Of a stretch of DNA of 64,000 bases, positions 2,978 through 64,000 are shown in pieces; the first letter of the stretch is position 1; the number at the start of each line of letters is the position of its first letter. Below the pieces are notes generated by a model, which worked only from the letters and a program-made list of their open reading frames with translations, searched no databases and had not been told where the DNA came from. A program made the position numbers and the translations under genes. The stretch comes from a phage. The stretch lies in the sequence record PV730299.1; one strand, written 5' to 3'.

Positions 2978-3047
2978 GTTTCTTTCCTGATTAATAAGGG
3001 GTGATCTCTCACCCCTGATGATATAACGGTAGTAGGTTTAGACCAAT

Positions 3048-5330
3048 TTATACAACACAGCTATCGCACTGAGTTTCCTCGGCCTGCTTCAGCTCTTCGT
3101 CTTCCTTGGCGTCCTTGTTTGTGTTGTAATACAGAGTCTTGCCACCCCACATATAGAACGACAGGATATCCTGCATCATCTTGGCGCGAGGGATCTTGCT
3201 GTCAGGGTACTTCTCTGGGTCATACCACGTGTTGGTACTGATGGACTGGTCAACCCAGCGCTGGATGACAGCAGCGGTCTTCAGGTACTCAATACAGTCC
3301 AGATCCCACTTGAGGTCATACATCGGTCCAAGGGTCTCAACGTCCGGGACGACCTGCTTATAAGTGCCGTCCTTGCTACCCTTGATGCTCACCAAGCCCT
3401 TCGGTGGCTCAATGCCGTTCGTTGCGTTGAGGACCTGTGAGGAGCTTTCGGTAGGGGCTACTGCCAGCAGGGTGGCGTTGCGGATACCATAGGTCTTCAG
3501 ATTATCCTTCAACCCATCCCAATCCAGCCCGTATGCCATCCCTTCTGGCTTCTTGCCATTTGGTAGGATATCAAGTGGAAGCGGCTGAAGGTCGGCGGTG
3601 ACCTGCCCATTATTGTGGATGGTTCCGCGTTTACACGCCCCGAACTTCATAGCCAGACGGTTGGACGCCTTGACCAGATAGAAGTGCAGGTGTGCCATCC
3701 ACGCATCCAGCATTTCAAGACCAGCTGGTGAGCCATAGCCCGTGAAGTTCTTGGCCAGGAAGTGAGCCACGTTCACGATACCAACACCCAGAGGACGATA
3801 GTCTTCAACAGCCTTGCGAGCCTGAATCGCTGGATAGTCCTGATATTCCAACAGCATGTCCAGCGCAGACACCAACACGAACGCCACGTCTTCCATTTCG
3901 GTCGGGTCTTCGAATGCTGTCAGGTTGAAGGAAGCCAGGGTGCACAGAGCCACGCGCCCGTTTTCATCGTTGTACTGCTCAAACTCACGGGTCGGCAGGG
4001 CGATTTCTAAACAAAGATTTGAAGAATAAATCGTGTCTAGGTTGAATGGACTGTATTCATTCATGTGATCGACAAACGCGATGTAGATGCGGCCTGTGTC
4101 TGAACGCTGGTCTAACAGCATCTGGAACACCTCTTCTGCCTGCAACTTTTTAGCACGAACCAAACCAGCATCAGCGGCCTTGATCATGTTCTCATACAGA
4201 GTACGGAACTTGTCAACGTCAGCGAAGTATGCTTCATACATTTCGCGGTTGTCTTTCGGGTCGAACAGATACAGAGGCTGCTTGGCAACCAGGCGCTCAA
4301 ACATCACGCGGTTGATCTGAATGCCATAGTCGATACGGCGTTCGCGGTTTTCTTCAGTACCACGGTTGTTCTTCAGAACAACGACGTCATCGAACTGGTA
4401 ATGCCACAGAGGGATGTACGCTGTTGCTGCACCACCACGAATGCCGCCCTGAGAGCACGATTTGAGTGCCCCAGTGAGATACTTGATGAACGGGATCAGG
4501 CCTGTGTGAACCATCTCTCCGCCGCGAATAGGACTACCAATCCCACGGATTGCCCCGACGTCGAAGCCGATACCCGCACGTTTGGACACATAGTCAACGA
4601 TGGTCTTGGCTGTTGCGTTGATAGAGTTCAGGGTGTCATCAGTCTTGATTAACACGCAGGAACTAAACTGACGAGTAGGAGTACGAACACCTGCCATAAT
4701 CGGGGTGGGAAGACTGAACTTGCCTGTGCTGGCATATTCATAGAACTTTTTCACCATCTCCAGGCGGCTGTCTTTGTCCCAGTTAGAGAACAACGCCATG
4801 GCGATGCCCATGTACATGACCTGAGGGGTTTCGTAGAAGATCTTGCTGTCTTTCTTGGAACGGTCGCGCAACAGGTACTTCTCAGTCAGCTGACCCATGG
4901 CCGCCCACGTGAAGTTCTTATCGCGTTTGTGATTGATGACATCGTTCAGCTCGTTGAACTCTTCGGTCGTGTAGAGATCAAGGAACTCACGATCATACAC
5001 GCGCTGTTTGATGTTCTTGACGAAGATGTCCAGCAGGTGAGGCGGCTTGTACTGACCGTAGACAGCCTTGCGCAGATCATACGACTTCAGACGAGCAGCC
5101 ACATACTGGTAATTGGGTTTGTCTACAGAGATCAGTGAAGCCGCAGCCTGGATGAGGATATCCTGAATGCGATCTGTTCTCATGTTGTCGGTGAACTGAA
5201 TCTTCGATGCAGCGATCACCTCTGACATTGACACACCAGACAGGCCATCACAGGCGCGGTCTACGACTGCGTGTAGTTTCTCAATATCAAATGGGACAGA
5301 AGATCCGTCACGTTTTATAACGTTAATCAT
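3048..5330 (-). CDS. nrdA: ribonucleotide reductase class Ia alpha subunit
   Basis: 760 aa; N-terminal ATP-cone (MINVIKRDGSSVPFDIEKL), length matches NrdA (about 760 aa); SD GAGGAACACC-ATG; no intein. Confidence 0.95.
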   Translation of the reverse strand: MINVIKRDGSSVPFDIEKLHAVVDRACDGLSGVSMSEVIAASKIQFTDNMRTDRIQDILIQAAASLISVDKPNYQYVAARLKSYDLRKAVYGQYKPPHLLDIFVKNIKQRVYDREFLDLYTTEEFNELNDVINHKRDKNFTWAAMGQLTEKYLLRDRSKKDSKIFYETPQVMYMGIAMALFSNWDKDSRLEMVKKFYEYASTGKFSLPTPIMAGVRTPTRQFSSCVLIKTDDTLNSINATAKTIVDYVSKRAGIGFDVGAIRGIGSPIRGGEMVHTGLIPFIKYLTGALKSCSQGGIRGGAATAYIPLWHYQFDDVVVLKNNRGTEENRERRIDYGIQINRVMFERLVAKQPLYLFDPKDNREMYEAYFADVDKFRTLYENMIKAADAGLVRAKKLQAEEVFQMLLDQRSDTGRIYIAFVDHMNEYSPFNLDTIYSSNLCLEIALPTREFEQYNDENGRVALCTLASFNLTAFEDPTEMEDVAFVLVSALDMLLEYQDYPAIQARKAVEDYRPLGVGIVNVAHFLAKNFTGYGSPAGLEMLDAWMAHLHFYLVKASNRLAMKFGACKRGTIHNNGQVTADLQPLPLDILPNGKKPEGMAYGLDWDGLKDNLKTYGIRNATLLAVAPTESSSQVLNATNGIEPPKGLVSIKGSKDGTYKQVVPDVETLGPMYDLKWDLDCIEYLKTAAVIQRWVDQSISTNTWYDPEKYPDSKIPRAKMMQDILSFYMWGGKTLYYNTNKDAKEDEELKQAEETQCDSCVV

Positions 5331-5413
5331 GGTGTTCCTCGGGTTTGTTTACGCAGGTTTTATTATACGCCACCCTCGTAGATTGAAGGCGGCGGGGAGG
5401 GTTGGCGAGTTAC

Positions 5414-6256
5414 TTAAATGTCGTACAGATCGTTGACTTCCAGCATCAGGCGGGTGAAGTCGCCGCGCCCGTTGCGGTCAGACTTGTCGAACTCGATGAT
5501 ACTGAACGGCTGAACCCATTCAGGGTACTCATCACCGACGCCAACACCATCGATCTTCAGGGTTCCGGCCTCCAGCTTGGCGTTGAAGTCGCGGAAGGAA
5601 CTGACGTACTTTTCAAGGGCGCTGTCGCGCAGGCGCTTGTTGGACTGTTTGATGTCACCGTTGACAAAGATGTAAGTCGAGTCAGATGCGCGGGTCAGTA
5701 GGTTCTTCAGCTGCTCCATATCACATTCCTGCGCTTCTTCAATGATCAGGAAGGTGTCGTCAAAGGTCATCCCCTTGATGGTCTCCAGATCCTGGATCTC
5801 AATGATCCGCTTCTCCCACAGATAGTTGAAGAAACCGTCGCTACCTGTGTCAGTCTTCAGCACCTTCTTCAGCGTCTGAATCAGGGGCATCAGATATGGC
5901 ATCAGCTTTTCGTATGTGTCGCCAGGGCGGAAGCCTGCAGTCTGGCCTGTTGGCAGCGGAGAGCGCGTGATGACGATCTTACTGACCACTTTATCGATCA
6001 GGAGCTTGGCGGCGGCTGAGGCACCGCAGTACGATTTACCTGTACCGGCAGGACCGATTGCGATAGTGAGGTTTTCTTCAAGAGCAGATTGATATGCGAG
6101 GTTCTGATTCTCTGAGAGGCCATTGAACGGAGCGATTCTGAAGTCACCTTTAGAGAACTTCATCCAGTCATCTTCTTTCTGAATTGTCTCTTTCTTACGT
6201 GCTGACTTGGTCTTGCCCGCTGGCTTCTTACTTACAACTTTGGTGGCAGATTGCAT
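5414..6256 (-). CDS. phoH: PhoH-like ATPase
   Basis: 280 aa; Walker A GPAGTGKS and PhoH-family layout. Confidence 0.9.
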   Translation of the reverse strand: MQSATKVVSKKPAGKTKSARKKETIQKEDDWMKFSKGDFRIAPFNGLSENQNLAYQSALEENLTIAIGPAGTGKSYCGASAAAKLLIDKVVSKIVITRSPLPTGQTAGFRPGDTYEKLMPYLMPLIQTLKKVLKTDTGSDGFFNYLWEKRIIEIQDLETIKGMTFDDTFLIIEEAQECDMEQLKNLLTRASDSTYIFVNGDIKQSNKRLRDSALEKYVSSFRDFNAKLEAGTLKIDGVGVGDEYPEWVQPFSIIEFDKSDRNGRGDFTRLMLEVNDLYDI

Positions 6257-9892: not shown

Positions 9893-9925
9893 TAGAAAAA
9901 GAAATCCCCCTGTATTTAGGGGGAT
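9893..9925 (-). terminator. rho-independent terminator
   Basis: Hairpin ATCCCCC-N8-GGGGGAT followed by TTCTTTTTC on the minus-strand transcript. Confidence 0.6.
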
Positions 9926-14271: not shown

Positions 14272-14319
14272 GGTGTAGTTCCTGCTTTTCAAGTTGGTGT
14301 TGTACTGCTTATGGAATGA

Positions 14320-14348
14320 AGTATAGGGAAGGATATTGAAGAAGTAAA
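14320..14348 (-). promoter_or_regulatory. sigma70-like early promoter (TTTACT-N17-TATACT) with conserved leader
   Basis: Minus-strand TTTACTTCTTCAATATCCTTCCCTATACTTCATTCCATAAGCAGTAC; the run TATACTTCATTCCATAAGCAGTAC is identical at 51160-51188. Confidence 0.55.
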
Positions 14349-14378
14349 GGGGCGAAAGCCCCTTTTATTGAATTATTT

Positions 14379-27545: not shown

Positions 27546-27995
27546 TCAGAAACGGGTATCACTGACCGTTCTGTATCGCACACCCTGAAACTGTTTAGCG
27601 AGTTTAACAAATTCCATCGCTGGCAAATCAACTTTGTAGACCTTCATGCGCTGTTTGCCGTCCATGTTCAACGCAGCGACAAATCGGTGAGAACCGTCAA
27701 CAACGTAATTGTCAGAAGACACCCAAACTCGACCCATAGGTTTCTTATTTCTGATGTTCTTCATGATCTTCCAGACCTTCATCTTGTTGATTTCGTTCTG
27801 GGTAAGACGAAGCATTTTGATGGGCACTTGCACAGCATCTATGGACACGCCGTTGTCTTCAAGATATTTGTGAAAATCTTCTTGTTTGTCGGCATCGATT
27901 TGCGGCATAGAAGAACGAGAAAGCCCGAGGTTCCCAACAGGAATCCTCAGGCCGTTAATGATGTTCAACCAGTCAATAAAAGATGTAAGGAACAT
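27546..27995 (-). CDS. ParB-like nuclease domain protein
   Basis: 149 aa; motif YVVDGSHRFVAA matches the ParB/Srx DGxHR box. Confidence 0.55.
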   Translation of the reverse strand: MFLTSFIDWLNIINGLRIPVGNLGLSRSSMPQIDADKQEDFHKYLEDNGVSIDAVQVPIKMLRLTQNEINKMKVWKIMKNIRNKKPMGRVWVSSDNYVVDGSHRFVAALNMDGKQRMKVYKVDLPAMEFVKLAKQFQGVRYRTVSDTRF

Positions 27996-40719: not shown

Positions 40720-40730
40720 GGTATCCTCTT

Positions 40731-40765
40731 AGAATACGAAAACAGAGGCCATTATAGCCTCTGTT
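40731..40765 (-). terminator. rho-independent terminator
   Basis: Hairpin AACAGAGGC-N7-GCCTCTGTT followed by TTTCGTATTC on the minus-strand transcript. Confidence 0.6.
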
Positions 40766-40787
40766 GTTTAGTGAATAACCGTATATC

Positions 40788-43587: not shown

Positions 43588-43669
43588 TTTCAGCCTCGTG
43601 TAGAAGAATCATTTCAAATAGGCGGGGAACGCCCCCGCCCACACATTATAGCATCAGGCTGGAGATTGA

Positions 43670-44338
43670 TTACTCAATCTGTGCGCCGACGAAGTAATTG
43701 ATCGTCGCGTCGGATGATTGGAAGTTCACCATCTGTAGATCAGCACAGGCACGCAGAGTGTAGTTGCCTTCGATCATTTTCAGGTTGGCAACATCCAGCG
43801 GCATTACGAAGTCCGGCAGCGCGGTTTCGCCCAGCTCAACAGTGTAGTTGTTGGAGTTGTCCAGGGTAGTGGTGGTTGCAACCAGGCGTGTTTTGCCACC
43901 CTGAGCAACCAGGCGCACAGTCTTGTGTCCGAGGGTAGAACAGGCGCGGGTCAGTTCTTTCATCTTCTCTGGAGTGATGATCGCTTCAAAGTCAACAGAC
44001 GGCAGTTCAATAGTATCAGCCGGGACAACCGTGAGTTCTTTAGCAGAACGCCAGAATTGCAGCTGAGAGCTTTCGCCTTTCAACAGGATGTAGTCCTGAT
44101 GGAATTCGGCTTTGGCACCTTTGAAGGAAGGTAGGCGCTGGATGGCCAGAAGTTTGGTCAGGTCCAGAATCGGGAACTCAAACGGGAAGTCTTCTTCGAT
44201 CTGCGCCACGGCGATCACAGTAGAAGAATCATTAATACTGCGCAGCATCTTACCCGGTGTCAGAACGATAGATGGGTTGATGGTCTCAAAGTTGGCCAGC
44301 AACTGAAGTGTACGTTCGGAGAGAGTGATCTCTTGCAT
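43670..44338 (-). CDS. 45: sliding clamp, T4 gp45-like
   Basis: 222 aa; N-terminal LQLLANFETIN resembles T4 gp45 LLKNFATIN; synteny 45-44-62-regA as in T4. Confidence 0.85.
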   Translation of the reverse strand: MQEITLSERTLQLLANFETINPSIVLTPGKMLRSINDSSTVIAVAQIEEDFPFEFPILDLTKLLAIQRLPSFKGAKAEFHQDYILLKGESSQLQFWRSAKELTVVPADTIELPSVDFEAIITPEKMKELTRACSTLGHKTVRLVAQGGKTRLVATTTTLDNSNNYTVELGETALPDFVMPLDVANLKMIEGNYTLRACADLQMVNFQSSDATINYFVGAQIE

Positions 44339-44470
44339 TTGTATGTATCCTCAAAATATAGTGGGGGTTCAAGTCATGTTTGACGCAATCTAGTATCGCT
44401 GTGTTTTGCTTATAGAACAAGTGGCAAATTGCGCTACGCGTTATTAATAAATGCCTTCGGCATTTATGGA

Positions 44471-44516
44471 CTTTATTAAAGATAATAACCTTTATTAAAG
44501 ATAATAATCTTTATTA
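44471..44516. repeat. tandem direct repeats (about 19-bp unit TTTATTAAAGATAATAAYC, 2.4 copies) in a 360-bp AT-rich divergent intergenic region
   Basis: Read directly: tttattaaagataataacc tttattaaagataataatc tttattaa; adjacent hairpin AAATGCC-TTCG-GGCATTT at about 44448-44464. Confidence 0.6.
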
Positions 44517-44699
44517 ATCCTATTCGCTTCGCTCATAAAACAAATACTCGTTGTTCGCTAACGCTCACAACTCGTATAATACCACGCCATTGTTCAACAA
44601 GAAAGCAGTTTTTATTCAACAGCAAAAATAATTTATTTGGTCTAAACATGCACGCGAAATAATATGTATGTCATGTTAACCAACACACGAGAGTAATAT

Positions 44700-45071
44700 A
44701 TGAAACAGTTCGTAGGATTATACGCAGTCGGGTGTAGTAAGCCAGACGCCAACCTCACCACAGGTCAATTTATCACAGGCACCCCAGTTTATCTGACACA
44801 GCTGGCGTCAGACAAGAACTTACCATCGGAGCCGCGATTTGTCCCTCTGGGTTTGATGACAGGCCTGAAAGTTGGTCTGTATGTCGGTGTGGTGACGTTT
44901 GAAAATGGCGTCGAAGCGAAAGTTCTGCCATTCAAATTGGGCAGCGAAGAAATGCTGAAGGATACGATCAGTGAACACCTGAACGCACAATGTCTGGCTT
45001 CTCTGGACAAATTGTTCGGTGTAGTAACTGATGAAGGCGAGGCCACCCCCGCCTATGTGAATCAAGATTAA
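44700..45071 (+). CDS. hypothetical protein
   Basis: 123-aa plus-strand ORF, SD GAGAG, divergent from gene 45 and convergent with uvsW. Confidence 0.55.
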   Translation: MKQFVGLYAVGCSKPDANLTTGQFITGTPVYLTQLASDKNLPSEPRFVPLGLMTGLKVGLYVGVVTFENGVEAKVLPFKLGSEEMLKDTISEHLNAQCLASLDKLFGVVTDEGEATPAYVNQD

Positions 45072-46576
45072 TCGTGATTACCCAGCGCCACCTTCATGAA
45101 TTCCACAGGGTGGCGCTCTGCTAGGTAAAACTTGTAACGCTCGTGAGAGTGCCTAAGAGCGTGGTTCGTGCTGGCGTTGTACGATGCATCATCCACTAAG
45201 TCCCATATCCACGCGACGTCCTTAGAGGAGTGCTGACGCATCAGACGACCCAATGTCTGTATGACGCGGATATATGACTTGCTCGGGTGTGCCAGTACAA
45301 GGTGGTGTAGCTTCTTGATCGACACTCCCTGCTGCATTGTCCCGTATGATGCCAACAGGGTGATGTCCTCTCCATCCTCCATCGCTTTCTGTATGCGGCG
45401 GCGGTCTTCGATCTTCACTTCCCCGTTGATGACAAACACGTTGGGCTTGACTGCGCTCAGCATATCATATACGACCATCATGTGACCATCAATACGCTCG
45501 AACATGATGGCCACGTTTCCTTTCAGATTCAGTGCCATCTTGGCGATCAGTTCGTTGCGGGACTGGTGTGTGATAAGGTATTCTATTTCCTTGGAATAAT
45601 CCCCGTCCAGACCAACAGCATCCGCCGGAGTGTGCTTCAGCTGAATCATCTTCACTTTGATGTCAGTGGCGTACCCGAGATTGATAAGATCGCGAGCCGT
45701 GATGATCTTATGGTACGCCCCGAAGTGAGCCACCACCTGAAGCCCGGCAACTTTGGTATTCGCCAGCGTACCTGTAACCCCCAGGCGCTGGTCGGCATAG
45801 ATGCAGTTGTTTAGGATGTAAGACAGTTTCTCAGACTTGGAGGTGTGCACTTCATCCACCACGATATCACCGAACTGGTGGAACCATTCCTTCGGCTGGT
45901 CTTGAATGCCTTGCCATGTACTGATGACGATTGGTTTGCTGATCTCCTTTGTCGCGCCCTCAAAAATCAGCTGGGTGTTAACAACGGGCTTCCAATCACT
46001 GCCATGCGCATACTCTTCGAAGTTGTCGTACAGCTGAGTGACTAGGTGGATTGACGGCACCACGATAAGCGTCTTCAGAGGACTTTCGAGAGCTTCTCTG
46101 CGCCGCCTGTAGTACCGCGCCATGACATACAGAATAAAGGACTTACCGGCACTCGTAGCCAGTTCACAGACGCATCTGGTTTGACGCATAGCCTTGGCGA
46201 TGGTGTCGTACTGGTAGTCACGAGTCTCGGCATCGATATATTCGTGATTTTCGGTGCGGATCTTTGGATGCAGACTGTCGATGAAGTCACGGATTTCTTC
46301 ATCTGGGATGTCCTGAATGTACTTCAGCGTCGGATCCAGTTCAATGGTGTATCCGTTGTTCTTACAGAACTTAAATACCTCAAACAGCAGACCGATATCG
46401 ATTAGACCAGATGACTTGGTAAATAGGCGGACAACCCCGTCCCATTTAGAGAAGGGGTTGGGAACGAAGTTCGGGTCTTCGAATTTGAAGTAGTCATTAA
46501 GTTCTTCCCTGATAGAAAGATCTGCGATGCAACGCATGCGGACTTCGTTAACCTTAACAATCTGAATGTCTGCCAT
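45068..46576 (-). CDS. uvsW: UvsW-like SF2 DNA helicase
   Basis: Walker A LATSAGKS, DEVH box, overall collinearity with T4 UvsW (NLPTSAGRS, NDECH, VVLAH); start taken at MADIQIV with SD GGGAGA. Confidence 0.85.
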   Translation of the reverse strand: MADIQIVKVNEVRMRCIADLSIREELNDYFKFEDPNFVPNPFSKWDGVVRLFTKSSGLIDIGLLFEVFKFCKNNGYTIELDPTLKYIQDIPDEEIRDFIDSLHPKIRTENHEYIDAETRDYQYDTIAKAMRQTRCVCELATSAGKSFILYVMARYYRRRREALESPLKTLIVVPSIHLVTQLYDNFEEYAHGSDWKPVVNTQLIFEGATKEISKPIVISTWQGIQDQPKEWFHQFGDIVVDEVHTSKSEKLSYILNNCIYADQRLGVTGTLANTKVAGLQVVAHFGAYHKIITARDLINLGYATDIKVKMIQLKHTPADAVGLDGDYSKEIEYLITHQSRNELIAKMALNLKGNVAIMFERIDGHMMVVYDMLSAVKPNVFVINGEVKIEDRRRIQKAMEDGEDITLLASYGTMQQGVSIKKLHHLVLAHPSKSYIRVIQTLGRLMRQHSSKDVAWIWDLVDDASYNASTNHALRHSHERYKFYLAERHPVEFMKVALGNHD

Positions 46577-46604
46577 ACAAAATCTCCCAAGGATTATGGG
46601 GTAT

Positions 46605-47351
46605 TTAGTGATCCGGCCAGACTCCGTTTTGTTCTTTATCCATGCGATGATACAGACGAACACGCTCAAACATCTTAGTCAGAATGTCATCACGGTTGAA
46701 CTCAATTACGGTTGGTAGAGGGGAAGACTCGTTGGCAATCACGTTGATGAGGCGGGTGATCTTGACGCCGAACATCTGCTGGAACATGACCGAATATAAG
46801 CACAGCTGGATACTGTAATCCTCGATCATGCCCCGCGTCTTCATGGTGTTCGATGTCTTGAAGTCGATGACAGCAGGTTTACCCTCATAAACCCCGATAA
46901 GGTCTACACGACCTGCAAGACCAAGCACCTCACTATATAATGGGATCTCCTGAGCATAGATCTTTGTCATCTTGTTCAGGTAAGGGAACAGCTGCTTGAA
47001 CATGAACATGTATTCACCAGCCGCTTCCAACACTTCTTTCATTGGGCGGTTCTTTAGATACAGTTCACACGCAAGGTGCAGCTTCTCCCCTCGGTCAGCA
47101 CAGCGCATGGTCTCAAGATCAGCGGCCTCTGCGCCCAGCTTCTTCCTCCAAGACTCAAGCCATTCATGATCTCCAGTGCGTCCCAGCATAGTCGTGACGG
47201 ATGTCAGTTTAACACCAGACGGTGAAACGTAATGACGACCATTCTCCGTCGTAACACACTCCAGTTCCTTATGAGGAAGTTCGTATTGCTGGAATGTGTA
47301 ATGACGGTTTTCGAAGTCATTCAGCTTGCGTAGATCCTGGAGAGATGCCAT
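46605..47351 (-). CDS. PD-(D/E)xK nuclease superfamily protein
   Basis: 248 aa; GRVDLIGVY...VIDFKTS resembles the D...(D/E)xK active-site arrangement of Cas4/lambda-exonuclease-type nucleases. Confidence 0.6.
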   Translation of the reverse strand: MASLQDLRKLNDFENRHYTFQQYELPHKELECVTTENGRHYVSPSGVKLTSVTTMLGRTGDHEWLESWRKKLGAEAADLETMRCADRGEKLHLACELYLKNRPMKEVLEAAGEYMFMFKQLFPYLNKMTKIYAQEIPLYSEVLGLAGRVDLIGVYEGKPAVIDFKTSNTMKTRGMIEDYSIQLCLYSVMFQQMFGVKITRLINVIANESSPLPTVIEFNRDDILTKMFERVRLYHRMDKEQNGVWPDH

Positions 47352-49777: not shown

Positions 49778-49805
49778 TACCCCCATGGATGATGGGGGTA
49801 TTTAG
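49778..49805 (-). promoter_or_regulatory. late-promoter-like CTAAATA motif plus leader hairpin including the SD
   Basis: Minus-strand CCTAAATACCCCCATCATCCATGGGGGTATTTTCTT-ATG. Confidence 0.45.
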
Positions 49806-49808
49806 GGA

Positions 49809-49979
49809 TCATGGTAGTTTGTAAACGAAGTTGGACCAGAACTTACGAACAAACTTCTTGACATAAACCATTCGGTTGGCGTATTCCCCATCCTTCAGGT
49901 CATTGTAGGTCTCGATCCCTACCGCGCCCAAGAAGTACGCCGTGAAGATATAGCAGAACAGATTGATGACGACAAACAT
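49809..49979 (-). CDS. small single-pass membrane protein (not in the ORF track)
   Basis: About 56 codons, MFVVINLFCYIFTAYFLGAVGIETYNDLKDGEY...; SD GGAGATACATC-ATG; ATAAATAA motif upstream. Confidence 0.4.
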   Translation of the reverse strand: MFVVINLFCYIFTAYFLGAVGIETYNDLKDGEYANRMVYVKKFVRKFWSNFVYKLP

Positions 49980-50792: not shown

Positions 50793-50851
50793 GGTAAAGT
50801 CCTCTATTTGTAGGGGATAGGGTATGTGGTTAACATACCCTGTTCAAAGGT

Positions 50852-51133
50852 TTAGAACAAATGCTCACCTTCCACATGGTATGCTAACACGCCGTCAGAA
50901 CATTCAAAATACATGTTATCATATTCCCACAGAGCGGTGATTTCTTCACCCTGGCAAACCACCGAAAACTTCGGCTGGCTGGCCTTAACTGGAAATTTTT
51001 CAGGGGAAGAGATTGGGGTGAATTTGGCATTTCTGACGGCCATACCAACAAATTGCTGCAATGTTACTTTGTAACGAGAGTGGGTGATAGTGCCAGCATT
51101 CAGGGCTTCGATCAATTGCGCTTTAGTTGTCAT
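50852..51133 (-). CDS. hypothetical protein
   Basis: 93 aa; AGGAACTATATC-ATG initiation region and the conserved promoter/leader upstream. Confidence 0.5.
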   Translation of the reverse strand: MTTKAQLIEALNAGTITHSRYKVTLQQFVGMAVRNAKFTPISSPEKFPVKASQPKFSVVCQGEEITALWEYDNMYFECSDGVLAYHVEGEHLF

Positions 51134-51182
51134 GATATAGTTCCTTCATTTCAGAGTCAGTGTCGTACTGCTTATGGAATGA

Positions 51183-51210
51183 AGTATACGGGGTTTATTG
51201 AAGAAGTAAA
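51183..51210 (-). promoter_or_regulatory. sigma70-like early promoter (TTTACT-N16-TATACT) with conserved leader, second copy
   Basis: Minus-strand TTTACTTCTTCAATAAACCCCGTATACTTCATTCCATAAGCAGTAC; the -35 region sits in the loop of the hairpin ACGGGGTTTA...TAAACCCCGT. Confidence 0.55.
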
Positions 51211-51232
51211 CCCCGTTTATTGAAATGTTCTT

Positions 51233-54579: not shown

Positions 54580-54661
54580 TCCTTACATTGATATTCAGTT
54601 AAGTTGAAATTACTTAGTAGTTCAAAATCAAGCCCCCTTTCGAGGGCTGTGGCTGCTAAAA

Positions 54662-55513: not shown

Positions 55514-55558
55514 GATTGTTTCCTTCTGAACGATTTTCAGTATTTAGTGAGGCTGAAT

Positions 55559-58455: not shown

Positions 58456-58521
58456 GATTAAGTCCTCAACATTTTCTTGTAATTAGTGAGGGGGAATAAA
58501 GATCCCCCAGCACTGAGGACA

Positions 58522-61751: not shown

Positions 61752-61803
61752 AATCTTATTCCTTCTCTGTAGAGTTTCGCTCAATTTGAAAGATATTTAG
61801 TGA

Positions 61804-64000
61804 TCACCGTCTCAGCCATTCTTCCATAGACATACCAGAGCGTTCATCATAAACCTGAATTCCACCGAACCCTGGGATGTTCTCCACAGAGTGAGGATCT
61901 GGCGTCGACATCATACCCCCAAATGGTAGCATCTGAGATTCTTCCATCGCAGACAACCGTCCTCTCATGTCCACAGAGATATTTGAATTGGTGAGATCAC
62001 TAAACCATTCTTGTTTCACCGCCCATGCATACAACACGAGGGGCATTACACAGTCATCATGACAACCATCATCGGCTTCATACCTTGTTCCAGTCCATAC
62101 GAATGTACTGAGTTCATCTATCGTGTCCTGGTCATCTATCACCAGCATTTCACGTTCAATCAGGGCTTTCAGGTTGGCACAGCCGTTTGTGCGCACCTTC
62201 TTGTTGGTATTGATACCAGGCTCAGGGCGGCGACCACCGATTCTCTTGCCTGTACCCTTGGTATCTGTTGTAGTGAATATGATCTCGGGATATTCAATTT
62301 CCTGATATAGAATTGTGATTACCTGACCACCCACGTCGTTGTTGGTCTCGACTAGCATCGGGCACGTTCCATACTTCTCACCCATATCGGCGATTGTGTA
62401 CGCGTACATCATTGGAGGTATCGTGTTATTTCGATACTTGGCTGCGATCTTGTGAGGATAGTCTGTGATGTCGATAATGGTCAGCACAGAATAATCCCCT
62501 TCGACACCCTTGCCTGTATCTGCGATACCCATATAGATGCGTTTAGGATCGTAGTCGTGATAAATCTTGGTGAACTCGTTCGGCTCCTGATACAGCTTCG
62601 AGGTCATCTTGTCCAGACACTTGGCAGGTATCAGTGATCCCACAGAACCACGGAACTTAATGCCAAATTCTTGATCGAAACGTGCATCACCCAGCTTCGC
62701 CCTCTGTTTGGATTCCCAGTCTGGATCTTTGGTGTACGTTGGAACACGATACCATGGGACCTCTGTGAGTTTGAAGTCGTTGTATTGTGGATGTTCTGGG
62801 TTCGCCTTGGTGACGATGTCGTAGAACAACCCGCGCTGACCTTTCGGCGTACTGGTCAGAATACAACGTGAAGTCTCTGCAGATGCAATCGCCGGGAATG
62901 TAGACTCCCAGAATTCAAAGTCGTTTTCAATGAACGCCACTTCGTCCACATACAGGAGCGATACAGATCGACCACGGATGGAGTCGGAAGATGTCGCATA
63001 GGCGTAGATCTTTGATCCGTTTTCGAACTCGATCAGCGTGGAACCGAACTTCTCACAACCCTGTTGGAGGAAGAATGGCAAATCTTGATATGCTTTGCGA
63101 ATACGATCTAGGATTTCAATCGCCTGCTTCTCTTTGTTCGCCAGTACTGCGATCTCTTTGTCGGAGTGGAACATCGCATACCAGAGCAGGAACGCTGCCA
63201 CGACAGTCGTGTTGTGGCTGAGGAAGCCGTTGGTGTAGTAGCGCTGATCACTAGATTTCACCTGTAGGTCATACATGTGATGCGTCTCACCAGTCTGCCA
63301 AACCTCACGGATTTCTTCTGGACCTTCTGACGTCATGATGTATGACCCAGCATTCAGGTCTTTGGCAAATATCTCCTTCATTTCCGGAGTGAAGAACATA
63401 TGTTCATCGGCCACGTTAATTCGCCGCCCAGTAACAGTCACAATAACGAATTCCGCATATTTCTTCGTCTTATGCGCTGCGATAACCGGAACCCAGCCAC
63501 TATCGGATTGCACAAAGTAACGTTTGCCGAAGCGGCTGTCCACGAACTTGTCATGGTTGCCAATGGTATTCAGCGGCACAGCGTGGTTGACGTCCTCGAA
63601 GCGGCTGTGAAGCTCCCCTATGGTCAGGAGCAACTGCTCTTGGCTGAGAGTATCGTAAACTGTGACAAGCGTGTCACCTTTTACACATTTCCCAGACTGA
63701 CGAGCCTGGACGACCGCATTGAATCGATAGTCCTGGAAGTCATGGAACAACTGCTTCTGATAATCGTGCATGTCAAAGAGGATGAAGCCTTTATCGATGG
63801 TCGTGATCTTGTAGTAGTTGGCGGCGAAGTAATGGGCGTCCATCGCGCACTCGACGAACTCCGATTCCTGCTCATCTGTTAGCATCAACTCCACACGAGG
63901 AGCGCGCACAGACGGCTTGCGCATGAACGTTTGGTCCATACGCAGTCTGACGTCTTCTGTCTTAAACCCCGTCTTGAGCGGGGCGTATTCCACATCACGC
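61804..64000 (-). CDS. 17: terminase large subunit, T4 gp17-like, containing a mini-intein; 5' end runs off the window
   Basis: Nuclease/ATPase blocks collinear with T4 gp17 (KDKAVGILAHK, LIEKDKLIIHH, EEGYHDDLVMSLV vs EKEIAVLANK, LIEREMLVID, DDGCHDDCVMPLV); reading frame still open at the window edge (the track M at 63993 is a GTG). Confidence 0.9.
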   Translation of the reverse strand, partial: RDVEYAPLKTGFKTEDVRLRMDQTFMRKPSVRAPRVELMLTDEQESEFVECAMDAHYFAANYYKITTIDKGFILFDMHDYQKQLFHDFQDYRFNAVVQARQSGKCVKGDTLVTVYDTLSQEQLLLTIGELHSRFEDVNHAVPLNTIGNHDKFVDSRFGKRYFVQSDSGWVPVIAAHKTKKYAEFVIVTVTGRRINVADEHMFFTPEMKEIFAKDLNAGSYIMTSEGPEEIREVWQTGETHHMYDLQVKSSDQRYYTNGFLSHNTTVVAAFLLWYAMFHSDKEIAVLANKEKQAIEILDRIRKAYQDLPFFLQQGCEKFGSTLIEFENGSKIYAYATSSDSIRGRSVSLLYVDEVAFIENDFEFWESTFPAIASAETSRCILTSTPKGQRGLFYDIVTKANPEHPQYNDFKLTEVPWYRVPTYTKDPDWESKQRAKLGDARFDQEFGIKFRGSVGSLIPAKCLDKMTSKLYQEPNEFTKIYHDYDPKRIYMGIADTGKGVEGDYSVLTIIDITDYPHKIAAKYRNNTIPPMMYAYTIADMGEKYGTCPMLVETNNDVGGQVITILYQEIEYPEIIFTTTDTKGTGKRIGGRRPEPGINTNKKVRTNGCANLKALIEREMLVIDDQDTIDELSTFVWTGTRYEADDGCHDDCVMPLVLYAWAVKQEWFSDLTNSNISVDMRGRLSAMEESQMLPFGGMMSTPDPHSVENIPGFGGIQVYDERSGMSMEEWLRR
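63211..63687 (-). mobile_element. mini-intein (about 159 aa) inserted in the Walker A P-loop of the terminase large subunit
   Basis: Host sequence QARQSGK / TTVVAAF reconstitutes the P-loop GKT when the segment is removed; the insert begins with Cys (CVKGDTLV) and ends with His-Asn followed by Thr (GFLSHN/T), the class 1 intein boundaries. Confidence 0.75.

Follow-up and report, generated by a model that had tools for sequence, protein, structure and literature searches.

What function does the 361-bp gap at 44339-44699 serve in the phage genome of sequence record PV730299.1? The 64,000-nt stretch that was analysed is called the window here, and the gap lies in it between the gene of the sliding clamp gp45 (43670-44338, minus strand) and a 123-aa open reading frame (ORF123, 44700-45071, plus strand). 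An earlier sequence-only reading had described it as the longest non-coding stretch of the window, which is borne out by a crude ORF map (the runner-up gap, of apparently 326 bp, is an artefact of ORF calling), and had pointed to a tandem repeat, a hairpin and several hexamers, all of which are present where it had placed them. Two functions had been offered, a replication origin with iteron-like repeats or a dense regulatory hub. We consider, with a probability of roughly 0.6, that the gap is a compound promoter/insulator control region carrying a dispersed cassette similar to the promoter-early stem-loops (PeSLs) of T4-like phages, and that it is not an iteron origin.

Over 43600-45200 the window is 98.8% identical to Escherichia phage LHE287 and 91–98% identical to Agtrevirus and Limestonevirus phages, and it therefore represents an Agtrevirus-like genome of the Aglimvirinae (Ackermannviridae). 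Nearly all genes over tens of kilobases are on the minus strand. The gp45 gene opens the clamp / clamp-loader (gp44, gp62) / regA block, which is transcribed leftwards, while ORF123 is an isolated insert and the sole plus-strand gene for kilobases, converging on uvsW. The gp45 product is annotated as sliding clamp in close relatives and is 82% identical in amino acids to Kuttervirus gp45; its match to the Pfam family gp45-slide_C is weak and under the curated cut-off. The whole gap can be aligned across three genera, with 78–80% identity to Kuttervirus and about 70% to Taipeivirus. Compared with Kuttervirus CBA120 by segment, identity is 76% in gp45, 81% in 44339-44446, 52% in the hairpin plus repeat, 81% in 44521-44650 and 46% in ORF123. 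Short intergenic regions all over the window are often 90–100% identical to CBA120, against 65–85% for coding DNA (stretches of 92–100% identity lie, for example, at 27632-27686, 54580-54661, 55514-55558, 58456-58521 and 40720-40787), so that regulatory DNA is, on these alignments, apparently the slowest-evolving DNA in the family. Because many intergenic regions are equally conserved, the strong conservation is a family trait and not peculiar to this gap. No recognisable homologue of the gap region was found in Vibrio K446 and Aeromonas phiA8-29, two distant family members.

Scanning the gap for consensus motifs gave one promoter-like site, with 1.9 expected from shuffled sequences, and one terminator-like site, with 0.8 expected. 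The TATAAT-like hexamers of the sequence-only reading comprise one exact TATAAT (44575-44580) and near-matches, namely GATAAT twice within the 19-bp repeat and TAATAT at 44660-44665; they exist, but not in excess over shuffles. Since the scans were no better than shuffles, the hexamers and the hairpin carry weight only via their conservation in relatives. By that measure two candidate promoters stand out. P45, the candidate for gp45 (44420-44392, minus strand), consists of the −35 box TTGTTCTATA (44420-44411), a 17-nt spacer and the −10 hexamer GATACT (44397-44392), with a predicted start near 44385; Aglimvirinae, Kuttervirus and Taipeivirus share its hexamers (TTGTTC at 44420-44415, and GATACT) and the distance between them without any change, but differ in the spacer sequence. 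P123, the candidate for ORF123 (44637-44665, plus strand), consists of the −35 box TTGGTCTAAA (44637-44646), a 17-nt spacer and TAATAT (44660-44665), and the arrangement TTGGTC (44637-44642)-N17-TAATAT/TATTAT is kept in four lineages with unrelated spacers, the divergent CRW-SP2 included. With conserved hexamers 16–18 bp apart and a drifting spacer, both have the sequence characters of sigma70-type promoters and probably fire as such.

Both candidates are also exact members of an extended −35 box class, TTG(G/T)TCTA(A/T)A (TTGKTCTAWA), which has six exact matches in the window against 0.3 in shuffles (about 20-fold enriched). Four of the six are intergenic with a −10-like hexamer 17 nt downstream (boxes at 3046, 44420, 44637 and 50860), giving promoters of this class at 3018-3046 (minus), 44392-44420 (minus), 44637-44665 (plus) and 50832-50860 (minus), and the copies amenable to comparison are fully conserved in CBA120. 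The one at 3046-3018 (minus) is a twin of P123, TTGGTCTAAACC-N-TATCAT. The proposed reading as a dense hub of regulation at divergent promoters is thus supported, with one conserved outward candidate for each of gp45 and ORF123. ViI-like phages were described as having no MotA, AsiA, Alt or ModA, and their divergence points were predicted to hold promoters that, like the early and middle signals, could not yet be identified (PMC3184105); the divergent candidates fit this expectation from the CBA120 paper. A MotA-type middle promoter, annotated in silico in LIMEstone1, was rejected because the family has no MotA/AsiA. Upstream of P123 lies a near-invariant, unstructured A/T-rich block (44586-44636, plus strand; TTGTTCAACAAGAAAGCAG TTTTTATTCAACAG CAAAAATAATTTA) with a direct repeat of TTCAACA 22 nt apart. 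It gave no consensus RNA structure on either strand, its single-sequence fold was no better than shuffles (z +0.84), and it is likely an UP-element or a factor-binding region.

The right half of the gap holds two hairpins with G·A pairs, both written here on the minus strand. Hairpin 1 (HP1, 44536-44522) reads AU-GA-GC-(GAA)-GC-GA-AU, with the core GCGAAGC, and hairpin 2 (HP2, 44577-44544) reads AUAC-GA-GUUGU-GA-GC-(GUUA)-GC-GA-ACAAC-GA-GUAU, with two tandem G·A motifs. Both covary as paired structures. An IMG/VR scan with the 17-mer CTAYTCGCTTCGCTCRT gave 36 independent flank contexts, in which the pyrimidine/purine pair of HP1 was T-A in 17, C-G in 16, T·G in 3 and C·A in none (Fisher p = 1.3e-7), and the loop was GAA, GUA or GUCA, always G...A. 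For HP2, copy 1 of six lineages was aligned with one paralogous copy and a groundwater contig; 97.7% of the cells pair and five pairs are changed on both sides, which none of 500 shuffles reached, and registers slid along the alignment paired in 20–58%. In the window the HP2 covariance model has a single hit, this copy, and in CBA120 it picks up the orthologue and nothing else.

The minus strand is the better candidate for folding because the RNA fold of HP2 is −16.2 kcal/mol on it against −8.2 kcal/mol on the plus strand, because it is there that the invariant internal loops read as tandem G·A (U·C/C·U on the plus strand), because one HP2 pair is U·G there and C·A on the plus strand in most lineages, and because the loops of HP1 and HP2 start with G and end with A on it (GAA, GUA, GUCA, GUUA). 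The strand used in vivo would then be the gp45-sense one. A covariance scan with Rfam 15 returned only chance-level matches in 44200-44800 (E 3.8–9.9) and none on the cassette copies. Consensus RNA structure of the gp45 leader, the ORF123 leader and the right half on the plus strand stayed at shuffle level, and the HP2 stem alone stood out (minus strand, z = −2.8). On the plus strand HP2 overlaps the only TATAAT (44575-44580) and a TTGTTC (44551-44556). A plain promoter there is doubtful because both hexamers are HP2 arms, the distance from TTGNTC to TATANT differs between lineages (18, 17 or 22 nt), the "spacer" itself does not vary, and TATAAT is replaced by TATAAC in the groundwater homologue.

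Hairpins of the same kind were also met in other contigs. The groundwater contig (ERZ1292623...93010, 1490-1586 of locus L052) is unrelated and GC-rich, carries tRNA-Val and tRNA-Glu genes, and has the same two-hairpin element (TTCGCTTACGCTCATAA ... ATACTCGTTG ... TCGCTTCGCTC ... CAACTCGTATAA) whose two parts are separated by an extra, variable hairpin; the score of the HP2 covariance model there is 37.9 bits (E = 7e-9). Six IMG/VR contigs of 77–156 kb from one sample (L063, L060, L070, L083, L103 and L129) show this hairpin on a lengthened stem, GTAAACTAC-TC-GC-TTC-GC-TC-GTAGTTTAC, with a T-rich tract and strong consensus promoters after it. In this uncultured group of phages of roughly 150 kb, for which no match was found among isolate phages, the hairpin looks like a plus-strand terminator.

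HP1 is also the core of a dispersed cassette. Each Aglimvirinae genome has three copies of the HP1 core with about 20–25 bp of identity, as would be expected of a PeSL with several intergenic copies per genome. In LIMEstone1 they are at about 44.3, 86.6 and 127.2 kb, a spacing of about 40 kb, and each has a gene of its own sense about 100–180 nt downstream (a gp5-like hub gene, gp45 and a gp6-like wedge gene, in that order). In all three, about 100–180 nt with the promoter region separate the gene start from a small GC hairpin, beyond which come an AT-rich tract, then HP1 and then more hairpins. Copy 2 is in a 375-bp gap 5' of the gp5-like hub gene, which encodes OB and CHAP domains (5321-5695 of locus L056; PC3 84020-84394), and copy 3 is in a divergent gap 5' of the gp6-like wedge gene (about 2045-2330 of locus L062; LIMEstone1 about 127.2 kb), where the outer stem of HP2 differs (UUU/AAA). 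Beyond HP1, copies 2 and 3 have two more hairpins with compensatory changes, one of the form GCCY-loop-RGGC and one with ATGCC/GGCAT versus CAGCC/GGCTG round an ATGGA loop, joined by a conserved CCAUUCC linker. These extra hairpins are a candidate structured RNA upstream of the two baseplate genes.

Left of HP1, Tandem Repeats Finder reports a repeat with period 19, 2.5 copies and 96% matches (44471-44517, unit CTTTATTAAAGATAATAAC). The unit has two matches in 64 kb, both within this tract, against 0.08 expected; having no further copy in the window, it was rejected as a genome-wide operator. The repeat is clearly non-random yet polymorphic. Among phages at least 94% identical in the region, with flanks identical in all, the unit count is 1.4 in Ag3, LIMEstone1, AV101 and fGh-Ecl02, 2.4 in the window, LHE287 and CECAV_050, and 3.4 in A221. 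At its position Kuttervirus and Taipeivirus have unrelated AT-rich sequence, and the segment shows the lowest identity of the gap (29–53% versus 72–81% for the flanks), so that AT-richness is kept across genera and sequence is not. The segment 44473-44522 (86% AT, −48.9 kcal/mol) ranks first for low stability among the 50-bp segments of the window, two others being nearly as unstable. By these comparisons the repeat is an AT-rich spacer with a variable number of tandem repeats (VNTR), limited to one lineage, and not an iteron array. The sequence-only reading had itself named lack of conservation in relatives as what would count against iterons, and 1.4–3.4 copies in near-identical phages and none in Kuttervirus and Taipeivirus are just that. 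Because the copy number varies in steps of 19 bp, the two halves of the gap would need no fixed helical phasing. The repeat is a convenient strain-typing marker, not a functional iteron array.

Left of the repeat is the small hairpin that had been noticed before (44447-44467, no strand assigned; ATAAATGCC-TTC-GGCATTTAT). It has 9 bp with three G-C pairs, a TTC loop and a symmetric order of A-tract, stem and T-tract, and folds with −9.3 kcal/mol on the plus strand and −9.7 kcal/mol on the minus strand (z about −2.1 and −2.4 versus shuffles). Judged as an intrinsic terminator, it offers a 9-bp stem of −9.3 kcal/mol, and one such site is expected by chance. The stem is identical in Aglimvirinae and Kuttervirus with a loop of TTC or TGAC, and in CRW-SP2 an extra A in the left arm is matched by an extra T in the right arm, a compensatory indel. 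Taipeivirus has an AT-only palindrome at this position, whose fold is not significant (z +0.44). The T-rich tail is better on the plus strand in all genera (5/8 T; poor on the minus strand). The hairpin is a candidate for a weak terminator-like element or an insulator between the promoter halves. A T4-like late promoter in its arms (ATAAATG, on both strands) was rejected, the motif ending in G and lying 123 and 247 nt from the genes where the usual distance of the late-type core is 10–30 nt; such a role of ATAAATG is a weak possibility.

Put together, the gap may work as follows. P45 and P123 would fire outward from back-to-back positions, P45 into the clamp / clamp-loader / regA block and P123 into ORF123, and the small hairpin would terminate weakly in both directions. 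The AT-rich spacer was probably enlarged in this lineage by replication slippage of the 19-bp unit. On the gp45-sense strand, tandem sheared G·A pairs and GNA/GNNA loops would let HP1 and HP2 fold. The hairpin, the spacer and HP1/HP2 would form one cassette, its HP1 core recurring upstream of two baseplate genes, which could separate leftward transcription units from upstream input, either as structure in read-through RNA or as extruded DNA, and which as a short dispersed repeat might also serve as recombination substrate.

Several points weigh against this account. The insulating role is conjecture. The small hairpin has merely three G-C pairs and as such is missing in Taipeivirus, and the −35 hexamers of P45 and P123 are weak (3/6 match to TTGACA), both promoters having been missed by the consensus scan. 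The searched literature held nothing usable on transcription start sites, transcriptomes or origins of Ackermannviridae, and mapped transcript ends were likewise absent from it. To the right of HP2 no minus-strand promoter can be recognised, so an RNA containing HP2 and HP1 would need read-through of the uvsW terminator. The near-invariance of 44586-44636 is not accounted for by a promoter alone, and the only rearrangement seen at the cassette, the inversion in metagenome contig CYGL01000298.1, could be an assembly chimera over the 20–25-bp repeat.

Other explanations compete for the same observations. The gap might give rise to a structured non-coding or cis-acting RNA of gp45 sense, in which HP2-HP1 (joined in copies 2 and 3 by two more hairpins) would lead through an AU-rich linker to the hairpin 44467-44447; for the downstream operon it could stabilise the 5' end, block processing or work in the manner of antitermination. 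Folding that differs between the strands, tandem G·A pairs, GNA/GNNA loops and compensatory changes are all signatures typical of RNA. Two further hairpins with compensatory substitutions are present in copies 2 and 3, in three of three copies the strand that folds is the one with the sense of the gene downstream, and about 30 unrelated groups of viral contigs have hairpins of this type, in several cases with a T-rich tail. Yet single-stranded DNA fits the same features equally well, and with no match in Rfam, no recognisable minus-strand promoter upstream of HP2 and a poor minus-strand U-tract at 44447-44467 we regard such an RNA as unlikely, if worth keeping in mind. Much the same holds for a PeSL-like dispersed repeat kept for recombination and modular shuffling, with an otherwise only local terminator/promoter function, a view that overlaps with the promoter/insulator reading and is improbable as a full account. 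In T4-like phages, PeSLs combine terminator and promoter motifs and mediate recombination (PMC2839356, PMC4122927), the three copies share 20–25 bp of identity, and contig CYGL01000298.1 runs from uvsW through ORF123 to HP2/HP1 and then into an inverted gp5-like region, the switch falling exactly at the repeat ATCCTATTCGCTTCGCTCAT (about 1560-1575 of locus L054 versus 44510-44536 of the window, with 20–25 bp shared). The contig either records an inversion of roughly 46 kb between cassette copies in opposite orientation or is an assembly chimera; a sister contig of the same data set has the normal order. Against this view, all isolate genomes have the standard arrangement, and copy 1 is orthologous and highly conserved in three genera, lies between core genes and not in a hyperplastic region, and has invariant G·A pairs and covariation that indicate selection on structure. 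A small protein-coding gene hidden in the gap is barely credible: a 35-aa ORF is annotated in phage Mutine (CPT_Mutine_088), but it includes the repeat region, the least conserved and indel-rich part, where indels between genera break the frame, and it was rejected.

A replication origin of another kind than an iteron array is also to be weighed. As argued from iterons, the origin is not supported, since the repeat is polymorphic and unconserved, evenly spaced conserved direct repeats are lacking and no neighbouring gene product is recognisable as an initiator, although a protein without known similarity, such as that of ORF123, could still be a new one; an AT-rich stretch that could serve for unwinding does adjoin, at 44473-44522. 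T4 relatives have several origins without a common motif, often at points of transcriptional divergence; T4 oriF and oriG consist of a promoter with a downstream AT-rich unwinding element of exchangeable sequence, and the role of the oriE iterons is unproven (PMC3016281). By analogy, the AT tract could be an unwinding element opened by supercoiling behind divergent RNA polymerases or by an R-loop, the exposed minus-strand HP1/HP2 could be initiation or primosome-loading signals, and the three cassettes, about 40 kb apart, could be three origins. No 50 bp of the window are less stable than this tract, whose AT-richness is conserved without its sequence, and the site has replisome genes (gp45/44/62, uvsW and uvsY) on its flanks. 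We know of no primase or RNA polymerase in Ackermannviridae that reads such hairpins. Elsewhere the mini-hairpins GCGNAGC and GCGNNAGC, two G-C pairs around a loop with G as its first and A as its last base, have been reported in the primase-dependent origins of G4, St-1 and alpha3, in RSF1010 ssiA and in N4 virion-RNA polymerase promoters (PMC13037366). The HP1 tip is such a mini-hairpin in every lineage (GCGAAGC, GCGTAGC or GCGTCAGC). The HP2 tip is GCGTTAGC in the window and GTGTTAAC or GCTTTGC elsewhere, and in Kuttervirus (GCUUUGC) and Ag3 it is not a mini-hairpin. Furthermore, P45 and P123 both face away from the AT tract, so that no AT-rich element lies within about 100 bp downstream of a promoter as in oriF/oriG; the plus-strand TCGGCA-18-GATAAT that points into the tract is a chance-level consensus match; two other 50-bp segments are about equally unstable; and GC skew has no inflection beyond the local strand switch. 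An origin is therefore quite unlikely in our view. More speculative still, and something of a long shot, is the idea that the HP1/HP2 cassette is a new origin or priming signal of MotA-less T4-related phages, in which divergent transcription or an R-loop would melt the AT tract, of freely varying length, and tandem-G·A mini-hairpins of the gp45-sense strand, resistant to single-stranded DNA-binding protein (SSB/gp32), would recruit the primosome. If this were true, the three cassettes would be three early origins of Aglimvirinae, and the hairpin type would be used convergently by many unrelated phages.

The surroundings of the gap add some observations. The translation-initiation region of gp45 (44346-44363, minus strand), with the Shine-Dalgarno (SD) sequence GAGGA and CACTATATTTT upstream of it, is nearly invariant across genera and unique in the window; it might be a regA operator or a late-promoter-like box. 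The element CACTATAT just 5' of the SD was rejected as late promoter, being too near to the SD for any leader. A late-promoter-like motif, C(A/C)CTAAATAC, does occur 24–45 nt upstream of start codons, including those of uvsW and head/tail genes (46601-46612, 55540-55551, 58479-58490, 61793-61804, 9912-9923 and 49798-49809, all minus). Its core (A/C)TAAAT(A/G) is strongly enriched in intergenic DNA, 9 of 21 matches in the window falling within the 6.6% non-coding share, and a publication of 2011 gave the late promoter of ViI-like phages as not yet identified (PMC3184105). A strong sigma70-like early promoter motif, TTTACTTCTTCAATA...TATACTTC(ATTCCATAAGCAGTAC), recurs upstream of several small genes (51134-51232, 14293-14378 and 1535-1639, all minus), sometimes with a GC hairpin around it.

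ORF123 belongs to the PHROG family of unknown function phrog_4255, its only match; no match was found in Pfam, PDB sequences or PDB folds. Its AlphaFold2 model (predicted local distance difference test, pLDDT, 79.6) is a small beta-sheet with a helix. The protein is about 40% identical between subfamilies versus about 80% for the upstream DNA. The C-terminus EGEATPAYVNQ of this fast-evolving ORF is invariant because it is the opposite-strand reading of the uvsW terminator hairpin (45035-45054, minus strand, AGGCGGGGGUGGCCUCGCCUU), which lies inside the 3' end of the ORF, is annotated as a terminator in phage Maynard and is conserved between subfamilies. Residues of about 100–107, before a disordered acidic tail, follow the pattern (S/T/A)-(L/I/M)-(D/G)-x-(L/I/V)-F-G with invariant F and G. 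This motif (SLDKLFG in ORF123) presumably resembles the clamp-binding tails of T4 proteins, which we take as a lead only; ORF123 adjoins the clamp gene, and some records label it "clamp loader subunit". In the CBA120 RefSeq record NC_016570.1 the homologue is unannotated, which leaves an apparent 710-bp gap (90508-91217), and tblastn places it at 90847-91206. In Salmonella phage Se-H / Se-I (Kuttervirus SeJ) the right half of the gap and ORF123 are Aglimvirinae-like, with 84% identity in both DNA and protein against about 79% and 40% for other Kutterviruses, a pattern that suggests a recombinant boundary inside or near the gap. The Kuttervirus mutant selz, genome-reduced to 122 kb, retains the entire gp45-gap-ORF123-uvsW block (PMC9825161), which is compatible with importance of the block and proves nothing.

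The part of the gap most worth follow-up is the G·A-hairpin cassette. If the tandem-G·A double hairpin is an origin, an RNA processing site or a recombination hotspot, it matters for phage engineering and genome reduction. The TTGKTCTAWA class and the late-type core (A/C)TAAATA are testable candidates in ViI-like phages, whose transcriptional control is essentially unmapped, and the promoter candidates bear on therapy-relevant phages of E. coli, Salmonella, Klebsiella and Dickeya.

Among known systems, gene 45 of T4 has middle and late promoters and an initiation region controlled by regA, and it heads the block 45-44-62-regA. The block and a highly conserved initiation region are shared; here the region is divergent, with a small ORF on the opposite strand and a TTGKTCTAWA box instead of a MotA box. 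With the T4 iterons the gap has in common intergenic direct repeats in a T4-related phage, whereas its 1.4–3.4 polymorphic 19-bp units are absent in sister genera and those of T4 were reported as conserved in syntenic regions. Like oriF and oriG, it combines promoters with an easily melting, unconserved AT tract near uvsW/uvsY and replisome genes at a local strand switch; unlike them, it has the tract upstream of and between two promoter candidates, in a family without MotA-type middle promoters (PMC3184105). The tips of HP1 (GCGAAGC) and HP2 (GCGTTAGC, the motif cited for St-1 and alpha3) match the mini-hairpin motifs (PMC13037366), but here they stand within longer tandem-G·A hairpins of a double-stranded DNA myovirus, and the HP2 tip is not conserved in other genera. 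The PeSLs are likened to the cassette by arrangement and not by consensus sequence: in both, a short stem-loop with a promoter region recurs at several intergenic sites of a large T4-related myovirus and coincides, for the cassette if contig CYGL01000298.1 is genuine, with a rearrangement junction, while the cassette differs in having about three copies, in lying beside core genes (gp45, gp5-like, gp6-like) instead of in hyperplastic regions, and in conserving a G·A hairpin as its core and not an early promoter.

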